A stretch of 64,000 nucleotides of DNA from Candidatus Latescibacterota bacterium (lineage in GTDB: Bacteria > Latescibacterota > UBA2968 > GCA-2709665), in assembly GCA_965208835.1 (NCBI GenBank), contig OZ242358.1, positions 960,001-1,024,000 of the forward strand, given 5' to 3'. Each line of letters opens with the position of its first letter. Within the stretch, counting starts at the first letter, position 1. Below the pieces are notes generated by a model. It ran no database searches, was not told where the DNA came from, and saw nothing but the letters and a program-made list of their open reading frames with translations. Shown piece after piece: positions 46,395 to 50,907 of the stretch. The translations under genes were made by a program, and so were the position numbers.

Positions 46395-46413
46395 GCTCCT
46401 GACGTTTTTCAAC

Positions 46414-46442
46414 TTGCCTTTGTACGATGTTGCCTGTATTCT
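46414..46442 (+). promoter_or_regulatory. Possible sigma-70 promoter of the DUF5069-like gene
   Basis: TTGCCT-17-TATTCT. Confidence 0.4.
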
Positions 46443-46461
46443 TTGAATTGTCCAACTCTAT

Positions 46462-46644
46462 CAGCCCGTTGAAAAAGCCCATCCGGGCTACGGCCGGCCC
46501 TTGCGGTCGAAATACTGCGTTGCGCTCCCTCGCCGAATCCAGGGATGGGACTCAGTCGCGCGCCTTGTCTTCGGCCACAATGGCAATCTATTTCCGGGTC
46601 GGGACACCATACCTCGCCTGCAGAGCGACTTTATCAACGGACTG
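46462..46644. mobile_element. MITE-like element family 2 (183 bp)
   Basis: Imperfect 16-bp terminal inverted repeats CAGCCCGTTGAAAAAG / CTTTATCAACGGACTG with an internally palindromic, non-coding body. Confidence 0.6.
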
Positions 46645-46667
46645 CTTTTCAGAAAGGAGCCGAACAG

Positions 46668-46946
46668 ATGGATACCATGCACGAATCCATCGAATTCCGC
46701 CCGCGGGGCAGAACACTTGCCATGGGCGGTATTCCCTGGCTGCCAAGGATTACAGACAAGGCCCGGGCGATGCTGCGGAACAACATCGGCGACTACGTCT
46801 ACCCCTGACCGGCCGACCAGAAGTTCCTGGAGGAACTCGGCTTGCCGGCAGAGGAATTCACGCAAATCGTGTCCGAATGCAAACTGGACGCGGAAGTCAT
46901 TGAACGCGTGCGTCCTTTTTACGAGAAGGCCCGCAGGGGAACTTAG
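46668..46946 (+). CDS. DUF5069-like protein with in-frame TGA (candidate selenocysteine 47), 92 aa
   Basis: AAGGAG RBS; MDTMHESIEFRPRGRTLAMGGIPWLPRITDKARAMLRNNIGDYVYP-TGA-PADQKFLEELGLPAEEFTQIVSECKLDAEVIERVRPFYEKARRGT*. Family-like sequence continues past the TGA in the same frame. Confidence 0.75.
46809..46848 (+). promoter_or_regulatory. SECIS-like hairpin directly 3' of the in-frame TGA
   Basis: CCGGC CGACCAGA AGTTCC-TGGA-GGAACT CGGCTT GCCGG; apical loop contains G and lies about 19 nt after the UGA. Confidence 0.55.
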
Positions 46947-47006
46947 AATACCGCTGCCGCCACGCAACGCGTGGCGGCAGCGGACATTCTTCTCTGAATC
47001 ACGACG

Positions 47007-47942
47007 CTAACGCCTTCCGCCCTCCGGAAGCGCTTTCTTGGCAAGCGCGCGGACCTCTCCGGTTCCCATCTGCAGCAATCCGTCGATCCCGATTACATCC
47101 GCCGCGAAGAGCTGCGGACACTCCTGCGCCGCCAGGTCATATGCTTCCAGGACGTCGTAATTTACCCCCCGGTACCGGTAGAGTTGTCCCAAGCTCTCCA
47201 GCTGTCCGCTTCGTCTCAGGGAGTTCGTTACGCCCATCTTGAAATAATACAACTGTCGATCTCTCCTGTCGCCCCACCTCAACGTATCCGGCTCGGGGAT
47301 GTACGCCATCGACCTTTCCAGTTCCTCCTGGAAGGCATTGATCCGGGCGTCGACCATCTCCAGCAAACCCCGAAGGACTTCCCTTCGCGCGTCCTCCGTT
47401 TCATCCTGTAGCATATCCTGCAGAACCAGCGCAGCCTTCCCGTAGAATACGTAGCGGTCGCGCTTCCCGTCTCCGAACAGATCCATTTCAATGGCTTCGG
47501 CTTTGCGTACCAGCGCTTCCAGGTCCAGGTGGTCATCGCCCACGCCGGCGTAGTCATCGTCGGCGCGCGCCAACTGAATCCCCACGAGCAATGCCCGTTC
47601 TACAATCTGCATCATGTCTTCAGCAGGATCAAACAACCTCAGTTTCCGGGTGCTTTCGTCATCCGTCCTAATCGCTCCCGGGCCGTGCGCAAAGCCACGA
47701 TTGACCAGTACCTGCTCTGCATCTATCCCCAGGCGGTCCAGCAATTCGCGAAGCGCACCGCCCAATACCGGATGGCTTGCGGCGGGCAGGAATTCCGTGC
47801 GGCCTTCGACCACCAGGTCCGCCATGTCTGCGGCCAGTGCATCGTCTCCTTCCGAAACCTCTCTGCTTTGTGTCCCGCGTTCACGCGTCAGTGTGAAGAT
47901 AACCGCGAGCATTAAAAGGACAACGACAGCGATGTAGACCAT
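47007..47942 (-). CDS. Hypothetical protein with N-terminal membrane anchor
   Basis: 311-aa ORF, hydrophobic N-terminus, AGAGGGAG RBS. Confidence 0.75.
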   Translation of the reverse strand: MVYIAVVVLLMLAVIFTLTRERGTQSREVSEGDDALAADMADLVVEGRTEFLPAASHPVLGGALRELLDRLGIDAEQVLVNRGFAHGPGAIRTDDESTRKLRLFDPAEDMMQIVERALLVGIQLARADDDYAGVGDDHLDLEALVRKAEAIEMDLFGDGKRDRYVFYGKAALVLQDMLQDETEDARREVLRGLLEMVDARINAFQEELERSMAYIPEPDTLRWGDRRDRQLYYFKMGVTNSLRRSGQLESLGQLYRYRGVNYDVLEAYDLAAQECPQLFAADVIGIDGLLQMGTGEVRALAKKALPEGGRR

Positions 47943-48140: not shown

Positions 48141-49838
48141 CTACGCGCGGAACAGTTCCCCCATTCGCCTTCCCAGGAACCGTCCGGCCAGAAAGAGGCT
48201 GAACATGAGAAGCAGCATGCCCAGCATTCCCATTGCGCTGGCGATATATGGACCGTCCGCAATCCTGCCCATTAACGCGTAGATGGCCTTGGTAATGGGG
48301 AAATATTGTGCCTTCAGAGCAAGTATCAGGCTGTCGCTGACTTCCAGCATGGCAAAGGAAAAGCAGAGAATGGCGCCGGCGAACAGATTGGCGAGGATGA
48401 GCGGAAAGGTAATCTGCAGGGTGGCGCGCAGGGGCGAAGCACCCATATTCCTGGCCGCTTCTTCAAGGGAGACGCTCGTCTGCTGGAATCCGGCGTAGGC
48501 CGATCTGACCATATATGGCAGCCGCCTCACCGCGTACGCGATCACCAGCAGGGGGACGGGATTGTGCCTCGCGTCCAGAAAGGTGCCGGAATACCCGGCC
48601 AGATATCCGAAAGCCAGTACCGGGCCCGGCAGGGCCAGGGGCAGCATAGCGACCGCATCCAGCGCGCCTCTGAACGGGACCCGGGTGCGGGCAAGCAGAT
48701 AGGCAATGGATATGCCAAGTACCACGTCGCAAACCGTACTTAAAGAACTCAGCATCAGGCTCATTGTTATGCTGGGGCCCGCGATCGGATGCCGATAGAC
48801 GAGCGGGTAGTACTTGCCCGTGACTTCCTGCGGCCAGATCGCCATGAACCAACGCTCGGAGATCGATGTCAGGAATACGCTCAAGTGAGGGATCAGCGCG
48901 ATGGCTGTCAGTGAAATCATAACCGAATAGATAAACGCGGTCATCCCTGGCGACGCCCGGCGGGTAGCGGATCCGACGTGTCCCCGCGCGACCGTTTCAT
49001 ACCGCCGTTTACCCAGCATCAGCTTGGACAGGTAGAAAAACAACACGGTGAGCAATAGCAGAAAGACCACGAGCGCATACGCCATGGGATTTTCGTTGAT
49101 ATCTGAAATTGCATTGAAAATCTCGACCATCACCACCTGGCGATAGTTGAAAATCAGTGGAGTTCCCAGGTCCGTAAACGCCCAGATGAAGACGATGATC
49201 GCACCCGCGAAATAACCCGGCAACATCAGCGGAAAGGTTACGCTTCGAAACAGCCTGAATCCGCGGGCCCCCATATTGCGGGCGGCCTCTTCGAGGCTGG
49301 GGTCGATATTCGACAGCGCCGCTGCCACGTTAAGGAACATAATGGGATAGAGGTGCAACACCTGCAGAATGACCACGCCGGTAAACCCGCCGCCGAACCA
49401 ATCGATCGGTTGGTCGACGATTCCCAACTCCAGCAGCAGAAGGTTAATGGATCCGAAGCGGGCGAACATCTGTTTCATCCCGATGGCGCCCACGAATGGC
49501 GGGAGGACCATGGGTACCAGGATCAGACCGTTGAGGACGTTCTTGCCCTTGAAGTCATACCGTACCAGCAGGAACGCGATGGGCAGGCTCAGGAGCGTCG
49601 TTGCGATCGTGGTGAACATGCCAAGGCGGAAGCTGTTCAGAATCATCTCTTTGTAGACCGGATTGCTTGCCATCAGCTCGAAGAATACGAGCGAGATTTC
49701 GCCGTTCACCCACAGTGCACGCACAACGGCGTACCAGAGCGGATAGAACAGAAAAAAGACAAAAAAGGCAGACAATCCCGCCAGAAAGAGGATCCTGGAC
49801 CAGGTCAGGTCGTAACGATCAAGCAGAGTCTTCACCAT
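48141..49838 (-). CDS. Iron(III)/thiamine-type ABC importer permease (duplicated domain)
   Basis: Two EAA loops (SLEEAARNMGA), about 12 TM. Confidence 0.92.
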   Translation of the reverse strand: MVKTLLDRYDLTWSRILFLAGLSAFFVFFLFYPLWYAVVRALWVNGEISLVFFELMASNPVYKEMILNSFRLGMFTTIATTLLSLPIAFLLVRYDFKGKNVLNGLILVPMVLPPFVGAIGMKQMFARFGSINLLLLELGIVDQPIDWFGGGFTGVVILQVLHLYPIMFLNVAAALSNIDPSLEEAARNMGARGFRLFRSVTFPLMLPGYFAGAIIVFIWAFTDLGTPLIFNYRQVVMVEIFNAISDINENPMAYALVVFLLLLTVLFFYLSKLMLGKRRYETVARGHVGSATRRASPGMTAFIYSVMISLTAIALIPHLSVFLTSISERWFMAIWPQEVTGKYYPLVYRHPIAGPSITMSLMLSSLSTVCDVVLGISIAYLLARTRVPFRGALDAVAMLPLALPGPVLAFGYLAGYSGTFLDARHNPVPLLVIAYAVRRLPYMVRSAYAGFQQTSVSLEEAARNMGASPLRATLQITFPLILANLFAGAILCFSFAMLEVSDSLILALKAQYFPITKAIYALMGRIADGPYIASAMGMLGMLLLMFSLFLAGRFLGRRMGELFRA

Positions 49839-50907
49839 CGTCCCGTAGTATGGAAATCGCGTCCCGGGCGAACCGGATACGCACGCGGTCGCCCCCAATG
49901 GCTTTCTGAGTCACCGGATTACTGTCCACGAGTTTCACCTGTGTTCCGTCCGGAAGGTCCACAACATACTGTTCCATCTCGCCCAGGTATATCGCGTTCC
50001 GGACCGTCCCCGTTACGACATGGTCGGCCTCGCCCGGCGTGCCCGCGACGAATTCCATGGCTTCGGGGCGAATGGCGCACAATACGCGGTCGTCTTTCCG
50101 GATGCCGTCGTAGCCCGGGCGGCCGTACAGAATCCCAACCGGCGTCTCCACCCCGATTCTCTCGTCCAGCGCGATGACCTTGCCCGAAATCAGGTTAATT
50201 TCACCGATGAAGTCCGCGACAAACCGGTTGGCCGGCTGCGTATACAAGGTCCTGGGGGAACCGGACTGCACGACCCGCCCCGCCCGCATCACGGCGACGC
50301 GGCTGGCCATCGCCAGCGCCTCTTTCTGGTCGTGCGTGACATAGATCATGGTGATCCCGAGGCTTCGGTGCAGGGCCTGGATCTGTTCCCGCATCTCCAG
50401 CCGCAGTCTGGCGTCGAGATTGGAGAGCGGTTCATCCAGCAACACCACATCGGGTTCGATCACCAGGGCCCGAGCGAGCGCCACCCGCTGCTGCTGTCCG
50501 CCTGACAGCTGGTTGGGAGACCGGTCCCGGTAGGCTTCCATTCTCACCATCTGCAATGCCCGCCGGACACGATCAGTGCGGTTGCCGTGCGCTATGTCGC
50601 GCATCGAAAGGCCGTACTCCACGTTCTGCCAGACGGTCATATGGGGCCATAGCGCGTAGTTCTGGAAGACCATTCCCGTGTTCCGCTTTTCGGGCGGTAC
50701 TTCGGTAACGTCCCGGTCGTCAAAAAACACGCGGCCTCGTTCCGGCCTGTAGAACCCGGCGACCGTTCTCAACAACGTGGTCTTGCCGCATCCGGACGGT
50801 CCGAGCAGAAAGAAGAATTCGCCGTTCTCGATTTCGAGATCGACGGATTCTACCGCGACGACACTGCCGAATCGTTTTGTAACATCCTTCAGACGAACGC
50901 GAACCAT
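49819..50907 (-). CDS. ABC importer ATP-binding protein (FbpC/PotA-like)
   Basis: GPSGCGKTT, LSGGQQQR, LLDEPLSNLD, TOBE-like tail. Confidence 0.94.
   Translation of the reverse strand: MVRVRLKDVTKRFGSVVAVESVDLEIENGEFFFLLGPSGCGKTTLLRTVAGFYRPERGRVFFDDRDVTEVPPEKRNTGMVFQNYALWPHMTVWQNVEYGLSMRDIAHGNRTDRVRRALQMVRMEAYRDRSPNQLSGGQQQRVALARALVIEPDVVLLDEPLSNLDARLRLEMREQIQALHRSLGITMIYVTHDQKEALAMASRVAVMRAGRVVQSGSPRTLYTQPANRFVADFIGEINLISGKVIALDERIGVETPVGILYGRPGYDGIRKDDRVLCAIRPEAMEFVAGTPGEADHVVTGTVRNAIYLGEMEQYVVDLPDGTQVKLVDSNPVTQKAIGGDRVRIRFARDAISILRDDGEDSA

Follow-up and report, generated by a model that had tools for sequence, protein, structure and literature searches.

Short DUF5069 proteins as a probable new family of bacterial selenoproteins

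A review of May 2026 (PMC13188914) lists in its Table 1 119 prokaryotic selenoprotein families and subfamilies with their Pfam or NCBIfam identifiers, among which DUF523, DUF1858, DUF166, DUF1573 and DUF3179 are domains of unknown function (DUF) predicted to be selenoproteins with cysteine (Cys) homologs. The legend of Fig. 2 in the same review models the bacterial selenocysteine insertion sequence (bSECIS) as a hairpin with a loop of 3–9 nt, an upper stem of 4–16 bp, a minimum free energy of −7.5 kcal/mol or lower, a G within the first two loop positions and a UGA-to-loop distance of 16–37 nt. DUF5069 (PF16798) is a different family and fold, the only solved member of which, PDB entry 3omd, is titled 'unknown function protein from Leptospirillum rubarum'. 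Here we describe a gene for a short DUF5069 protein, interrupted by an in-frame TGA, in a stretch of 64,000 nucleotides of a Latescibacterota genome (the window; G000:C1:960001-1024000, G+C content 58.9%). We consider it very probable that its UGA is read as selenocysteine (Sec) and that the gene encodes a real selenoprotein. This reading is based on the pairing of TGA with Cys codons among orthologs, coding constraint downstream of the TGA, a hairpin that is conserved and covaries, and the presence of Sec machinery in the genome.

The gene occupies positions 46668–46946 of the window on the forward strand, as do all features of the gene given below. An ATG at 46668 is followed by 46 sense codons, the TGA at 46806–46808, a further 45 sense codons and a TAG at 46944–46946, and the read-through product has 92 residues with the putative Sec at residue 47, in the same column as in the orthologs. 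A Shine-Dalgarno-like AAAGGAG (46653–46659) stands 8 nt before the ATG, and a GGAG-type motif is found at the equivalent upstream position in the 37 orthologs displayed. Sequence and translation agree in every coordinate with the original prediction, which had been made from the window alone and described a ribosome-binding site, 46 codons, TGA, 45 codons and TAG. Five nucleotides after the TAG, between the gene and a convergent open reading frame (ORF), lies a terminator-like hairpin (46951–46983) with a 15-bp stem that includes 13 G-C pairs, which fits a gene end at 46946 and not at the TGA. Gene callers fail at this locus, as had been foreseen: every Sec-form copy in the protein databases searched is either cut or has its TGA given as tryptophan (Trp, W). 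Entries P0022, P0026, P0029, P0034, P0042, P0049, P0116, P0130, P0134 and P0159 end at residue 46, some others are C-terminal fragments, and P0006 and P0031 show W at the site.

The 92-residue read-through product (P0001) matches the Pfam model of DUF5069 with an E value of 1.5e-13 and 51.5 bits, over a cut-off of 27. The match covers residues 12–82 and profile positions 4–74 of 133 and spans the TGA, which confirms the family likeness noted in the original prediction; a six-frame search of the genome with PF16798 scores the locus at 46.3 bits. When the ORF is cut at the TGA it scores 21.7 bits, under the cut-off, so the residues downstream of the TGA are needed to reach it. All 24 full-length short-form homologs found in a collection of 5.8 billion proteins have Cys at the position of residue 47, as do 75 of 82 members of the wider DUF5069 family, which has no other conserved Cys. 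One of the other seven members shows W at the site followed by the FLEE of the Sec forms, and is therefore probably a TGA read as Trp. In 3omd, the residue aligned with U47 is the Cys of "YNCPLDQ". The proposal that U takes the position of the conserved Cys thus holds in the short-form homologs, in the wider family and in the solved structure. The site motif is Y-P-C/U-P-x-D, here Y-P-U-P-A-D, and the near-invariant residues are P12, R13, L25, R27, D30, K31, R33, C/U47, D50 and D74. With PF16798 and 3omd the short form shares a profile score over the cut-off, the motif Y-x-C-P-x-D and the Cys aligned to U47, but it is without the C-terminal third of the domain and has a predicted Sec instead of Cys. 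DUF5069 was not found in 14 model genomes, and a natural Cys homolog (P0007) matches DUF5069 clusters only, with scores below 0.9, in a protein atlas.

Other arrangements of the domain were observed along the way. The genome itself holds a 431-residue paralog (G000:C1:276545-277840; L025:1060-2355) made up of three full-length DUF5069 domains, of which only the middle one retains Y-N-C-P-I-D, the outer two having Y-G/A-x-D-S-G-L-D. It is followed by a creatininase-family gene and preceded by a DUF433/PIN pair, and a three-domain gene is also present in relatives. Furthermore, P0041, P0043, P0046, P0048, P0052 and others, of 600–1400 residues, show 6–10 separate matches to query residues of about 4–40; judging by these matches, the N-terminal part of DUF5069, P-R...W-L-P-R-x-x-D-K-A-R, seems to be present as a tandem repeat in such large proteins.

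The TGA recurs widely. Among 41 related genomes, 37 have an ortholog, with TGA in the exact column in 35 and TGC in 2. A scan with one genome per species returned 241 relatives, of which the best 80 comprise 57 with TGA, 17 with TGC and 6 with TGT. In the window's phylum, orthologs called at E ≤ 1e-15 were found in 118 of 168 genomes, all in four families of one class; 103 of the 118 have the TGA and 15 have no stop. A second phylum (G168, locus L114, NCBI title Poribacteria) has an ortholog in 145 of 151 sampled genomes, 140 of them with the TGA and 5 with no stop; of the 20 loci fetched from this phylum, 19 had been listed with a stop, and all of these have TGA in the aligned column, whereas the remaining one, listed without, has TGC. 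The TGA form, found in 103 of the 168 and 140 of the 151 genomes, or 243 over both phyla, is thus not rare. TGC or TGT is present in every no-stop ortholog whose DNA was read, and the site column in 117 loci contains TGA, TGC or TGT and nothing else. In a set of 86 loci with unique sequences, 63 contain a stop (the Sec forms) and 23 do not (the Cys forms); the stop is TGA, never TAA or TAG, in all 63. A tree of the 86 sequences implies about seven changes between Sec and Cys, at least three of which are forced by well-supported branches. Repeated exchange of Sec and Cys is usual in selenoprotein families.

The names under which some of these contigs were deposited are an unsafe guide to their taxonomy. 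L107, L134 and L141 have NCBI titles of Gemmatimonas, Gemmatimonadota or Planctomycetota, and their selB lies at contig coordinates identical to those in G079, G112 and G113. These genomes are placed in the window's own phylum, and the deposited names of these metagenome-assembled genomes therefore conflict with their placement.

From one genome alone, gene decay through a nonsense mutation, or an error of sequencing or assembly, could not have been excluded as the origin of the TGA, and gene callers indeed take it as a stop. The original prediction had pointed to a one-off TGA, with no other UGA homolog, and to a read error at 46806–46808 as grounds on which it would fall. Many UGA homologs with a conserved downstream frame and hairpin were found instead, the same TGA being present in 103 + 140 species-level genomes of two phyla. 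Runs from 11 studies contain the sequence stretch, and most of them are labelled sponge metagenome. X1, perhaps the source sample, has a contig that covers 46621–47100 with zero differences, and a contig of X5, from another study, covers 46618–46942 with 3 differences, none at the TGA. The TGA is unchanged in the contigs of both studies, which excludes a sequencing error, and with the downstream frame intact and constrained we regard the nonsense or error explanation as refuted, leaving it a negligible probability.

As judged from the alignments, purifying selection acts on the codons downstream of the TGA. In the 63 Sec forms, the ratio of nonsynonymous to synonymous differences (pN/pS) has a value of 0.27 for the codons that precede the TGA and 0.41 for those that follow it, and pS is about 0.7 in either part. 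Within the window TGA terminates 17 of 36 long ORFs and thus serves as an ordinary stop, so there is no genome-wide reassignment of the codon. Overlapping ORFs of 158–169 residues do exist in this sequence of 59% G+C, at 46427–46903 and 46501–47010 on the forward strand and at 46488–46967 on the reverse strand, and if one of them were the real gene, the similarity to DUF5069 would be incidental. We attach next to no weight to this idea: none of the three has a Pfam match at E ≤ 0.1, differences between the orthologs cluster at the third positions of DUF5069-frame codons, and the ribosome-binding site and the terminator-like hairpin agree with that frame.

The nucleotides that follow the TGA can pair in two tiers. 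The core bSECIS-like hairpin (46822–46837) consists of a stem of AGUUCC (46822–46827) with GGAACU (46832–46837) and the apical loop UGGA (46828–46831), and a lower stem of CCGGC (46809–46813) with GCCGG (46844–46848) extends it to a stem-loop of 46809–46848. All these coordinates were right in the original prediction, which had, however, placed the start of the hairpin directly after the TGA, whereas the conserved upper hairpin begins 13 nt after it. The CCGGC/GCCGG base that does directly follow the TGA here is confined to this genus; outside the genus other bases pair, or none. When 71 nt of this single sequence are folded, the energy is −25.3 kcal/mol with a z score of −1.78, and an equal or better fold is obtained from 17 of 200 shuffles. 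The hairpin of one sequence alone is therefore not significant, and its significance comes from comparison among orthologs.

That comparison separates the two forms clearly. Positions +18 to +29 counted from the T of the TGA, TTCCTGGAGGAA, are at least 97% conserved in the Sec forms, third codon positions included, compared with a third-position conservation of 48–65% over the same positions in the 23 Cys forms; over the hairpin's six codons, pS is 0.23 in Sec forms versus 0.72 in Cys forms. Of the 63 unique Sec forms, 62 keep the 6-bp stem and TGGA loop unbroken, compared with 1 of 23 Cys forms, and the loop of the single stem-bearing Cys form is TACA. Among the 63 Sec forms, the pair +17/+30 is G-C in 52, C-G in 11 and broken in 0, and the next pair outward is A-U in 46, G-U in 12, G-C in 4 and A·A in 1. 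This structure has 92.6% of its cells paired versus 84.7% in shuffles, and a covariation score of 0.217 versus 0.097; 0 of 500 shuffles reach 0.217, although a shuffle control of this kind can overstate significance with related sequences. Sliding the partner by 1–3 columns gives covariation scores of 0.10 or less. The covariation alters residues, K-F-L-E-E-L becoming R-F-L-E-E-V/A, and the F-L-E-E that follows the site in all Sec forms is variable in the Cys forms. These patterns of conservation indicate that the hairpin is a constrained RNA element specific to the Sec forms. Here an RNA structure constrains the protein sequence, with F-L-E-E fixed and K...L replaced jointly by R...V/A so that the base pair is kept.

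In its geometry the hairpin resembles a bSECIS element, having a 4-nt loop, UGGA, with G at position 2, a 6-bp stem and a UGA-to-loop distance of 19 nt. A stretch of 60 nt, taken from the TGA, folds at −19.2 kcal/mol in this genome, within the energy limit of the bSECIS model. Two further genes of the same genome, selD and an fdhA-like gene, have an in-frame TGA at known Sec positions that is followed after 11–12 nt by a hairpin with a 6-bp stem and the loop GGUC or GGUCU. Like theirs, the short DUF5069 hairpin lies within the coding region, starts 11–13 nt past the UGA and has a 6-bp stem ending in CC before a small GG-bearing loop, and the 60-nt folds from the TGA of the three genes range from −19 to −26 kcal/mol. 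Its core stem is more A-U and weaker than theirs (−5.8 versus −8.0 kcal/mol), and a bulged U is not evident in it, unlike in the comparison bSECIS set. The bSECIS of Escherichia coli fdhF is a further comparison element of the same general type. An Rfam scan of 46400–47200 gave nothing close to a gathering score.

The genome has the Sec machinery on which the original prediction depended. The genes selA, selB and tRNA-Sec (selC) are clustered at C1:3536434–3539955 and all score above curated cut-offs, as does selD at C1:4401300–4402223, whose own in-frame TGA lies in C-G-U-A-A-K. The fdhA-like gene (C1:2632877–2633617) has its TGA in C-S-R-A-U-H-A-P, so that, with the short DUF5069 gene, the genome would have at least three selenoprotein genes. 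In an alternative explanation the UGA is passed without Sec, either by near-cognate read-through with Trp, Cys or Arg that the hairpin stimulates, or with termination dominant, a 46-residue peptide as the main product and the full-length form a minor one. Against this, the stop is always TGA, in 63 of 63 unique forms, and the alternative residue always Cys; with presence set at E ≤ 1e-70, selB accompanies the TGA form in 99 of 103 genomes of the window's phylum and 138 of 140 of the second. A selB match is missing from 3 of 15 no-stop genomes, among them both genomes of genus g14, which have the no-stop form. In genus g6, selB is retained in both Cys-form genomes. Moreover, the half of the gene downstream of the TGA is under purifying selection and is required for the PF16798 cut-off. 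The UGGA loop, which is unlike the GGUC type of selD and the fdhA-like gene, is the feature that speaks for passage without Sec, an explanation that we consider very unlikely.

Several observations, that loop with its G at positions 2–3 instead of GGUC or GGUCU among them, weigh against selenocysteine at the UGA. At E ≤ 1e-70, selB was not found in 4 of the 103 and 2 of the 140 TGA-form genomes. Completeness is 75–84% for three of the four exceptions in the window's phylum, but it is rated 98% for the other, G109. The 16-nt core hairpin (−5.8 kcal/mol) and the consensus fold of the 63 sequences (−7.14 kcal/mol) are both weaker than −7.5 kcal/mol, a limit reached only with flanking pairs that vary by lineage. 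The bSECIS likeness claimed by the original prediction holds for loop, stem, G and spacing, while in energy the 60 nt lie within the limit, the core alone outside it and the consensus fold slightly short of it. Among the 19 TGA loci fetched from the second phylum, 6 lack the outermost pair and so retain 5 bp, and the hairpin is displaced by 3 nt through a one-codon insertion in 3 others. RNA support comes from one metatranscriptome contig (X19), of depth 3 and with possible DNA carry-over; its 153 nt span 46774–46925, TGA and hairpin included, with two differences, one synonymous and the other a change of Glu to Asp that is found too in a close ortholog, and it is a weak hint of transcription.

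The three loci with the one-codon insertion, L148, L150 and L154, read P-M-D-Q-S/A-V-F-L-E-E-Y and have the stem GUAUUCC/GGAAUAC, again compensatory. Judging from this insertion, the distance from UGA to hairpin may vary to some degree.

On balance, we infer that selenium is actually inserted at UGA 46806–46808. In this mechanism, SelB with Sec-tRNA(Sec) would be recruited by the hairpin 13 nt downstream of the UGA, with its 6-bp stem and UGGA loop, selenocysteine would be inserted at the UGA, and translation would continue to the TAG at 46944, giving the 92-residue protein. The product would be a short DUF5069 that corresponds to the first 74 of 133 Pfam positions and has four predicted helices, and in it Sec47 would take the place of the family's single conserved Cys, directly before predicted helix 48–57.

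To current catalogues this selenoprotein family appears to be new, as the original prediction had suspected. PF16798, the sole Pfam family over the cut-off here, is not in the 119-family Table 1 of PMC13188914, and NCBIfam release 20, in which the models cited for recent families are included, gave 0 matches to the read-through product at E ≤ 1; membership was tested with Pfam and NCBIfam models, the cd and PTHR models of Table 1 being outside the search. DUF5069 is also not among the families named in the available portions of deep-Sep (PMC12013277), which describes nine new families, and of BSepDB (PMC13326102), which holds 111. In the literature searched there was no paper with 'DUF5069' or 'PF16798', and the 29 database matches are Cys forms, truncated forms and one with W at the site, none of them named a selenoprotein by any source. 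There is a small chance that the Sec family is real but has been described under another name, such as 'Hypothetical protein GOS_A', for which 2 Sec sequences and 155 Cys homologs with no known domain are given by Zhang and Gladyshev (2008; PMC2398784). By that description, which is the only basis of the comparison, GOS_A is likewise a small, domain-less family from marine metagenomes with few Sec forms and many Cys homologs; DUF5069 is not named there as its domain, and GOS_A is not in Table 1 of PMC13188914. We consider the identity of the two unlikely.

Should the short DUF5069 proteins be a new selenoprotein family, they would add one to the approximately 119 known in prokaryotes, and annotation pipelines could include a model of them. 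Their Sec form recurs much more widely than several of the catalogued DUF families: for DUF523 there was no TGA homolog in other organisms, compared with the 243 genomes counted here. A Sec/Cys pair marks a chemically reactive residue, and the pair at residue 47 would therefore be a first functional clue for DUF5069 and name a residue to mutate.

An AlphaFold2 model built with 82 aligned relatives has a pLDDT of 91 and is all-helical, with predicted helices at 25–36, 48–57, 61–70 and 74–90, which would place Sec47 directly before a predicted helix. Sec47 may in this resemble the reactive Cys or Sec of thiol oxidoreductases, which is placed before a helix. The model superimposes on 3omd with a VIA-align Z of 12.4 and an rmsd of 2.2 over 85 residues (Foldseek E value 2.8e-4, TM score 0.78). 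Our best guess, held with some confidence, is that Sec47 acts as a redox or nucleophilic residue; this follows from what Sec/Cys pairs mean in other selenoproteins and draws weak support from genes found beside some orthologs, an FNR-like gene downstream and a gene for an APH-like kinase upstream. Four negative results count against any such assignment of function. Foldseek and VIA-align searches of the PDB gave no fold relative besides 3omd, the next chain having a Z of 4.1, so that no function is transferable; neither a thioredoxin fold nor a CxxU/UxxC partner was found in the model and the 82-member alignment; the same 82 members have no second conserved Cys or His, no other column exceeding 20% Cys or 30% His; and no neighbouring gene is conserved over all lineages in the 86 unique loci.

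The neighbours in the window, a fused GlyRS, an RsmD-like methyltransferase and a convergent ABC transporter, are uninformative for function, and NCBIfam had no match for the neighbours tested. Over the 86 unique loci, RsmD is upstream in 37. The APH-like kinase (PF01636, E value 4.6e-5) is encoded directly upstream in 24, of which 9 are Sec and 15 Cys forms, and in most of the 24 the kinase and DUF5069 ORFs overlap by a few nucleotides, the overlap in L120 being ATGA. An FNR-like oxidoreductase with a NAD_binding_1 domain is encoded directly downstream in 12 loci, 10 Cys and 2 Sec. A cassette of APH-like kinase, short DUF5069 and FNR-like genes was observed in L120 (128-2294), L125, L129, L123, L130, L143, L145, L110, L117–L119 and L121, and in L120 the FNR-like gene begins immediately past the DUF5069 stop. 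The cassette was not found around the window's gene: in this genome, some 340 kb separate it from the kinase ortholog, which has a DUF362 gene on one side and an AIR-synthase-like gene on the other, and a query from the cassette found no FNR-like gene. Arg/Pro-rich ORFs in high-G+C loci, such as P0180, are spurious and were dropped from the analysis of context.

We treat the gene context as a lead and not as a finding, and a functional link of kinase and reductase to short DUF5069 is a doubtful one. A broader picture can be drawn, tentatively and with the odds against it, in which short DUF5069 would be a near-universal core selenoenzyme of Poribacteria and one Latescibacterota class, with a non-thioredoxin, all-helical fold and a single catalytic Sec before a predicted helix, acting in an undescribed pathway alongside the two proteins with which it shares an operon in some lineages, the APH-like kinase and the FNR-like NAD(P)H oxidoreductase. 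If that were true, the conserved Arg, Lys and Asp near the site would bind a phosphorylated or anionic substrate.

Two further features flank the gene. On the reverse strand, at 47007–47942, a 311-residue ORF with no Pfam or NCBIfam match converges on the selenoprotein gene. It adjoins an ABC permease (48141–49898) and an ABC ATPase (49819–50907), and from this position it may be their substrate-binding protein. On the other side, between the RsmD-like and selenoprotein genes, 46540–46650 is a dispersed repeat with 56 matches in the genome at E ≤ 0.001 (168 first-look candidates, 40 scored). It often takes the form of two half-elements separated by about 150 nt. Its contig depth is in the thousands in two runs, one of them labelled sponge metagenome, and many joints and loose ends fall at 46612 and 46644–46646; the uncovered parts and the very deep cover at 46500–46646 in the metagenome runs reflect this repeat and not the gene. 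The repeat looks like a miniature inverted-repeat transposable element (MITE) or a repetitive extragenic palindromic (REP)-like element.

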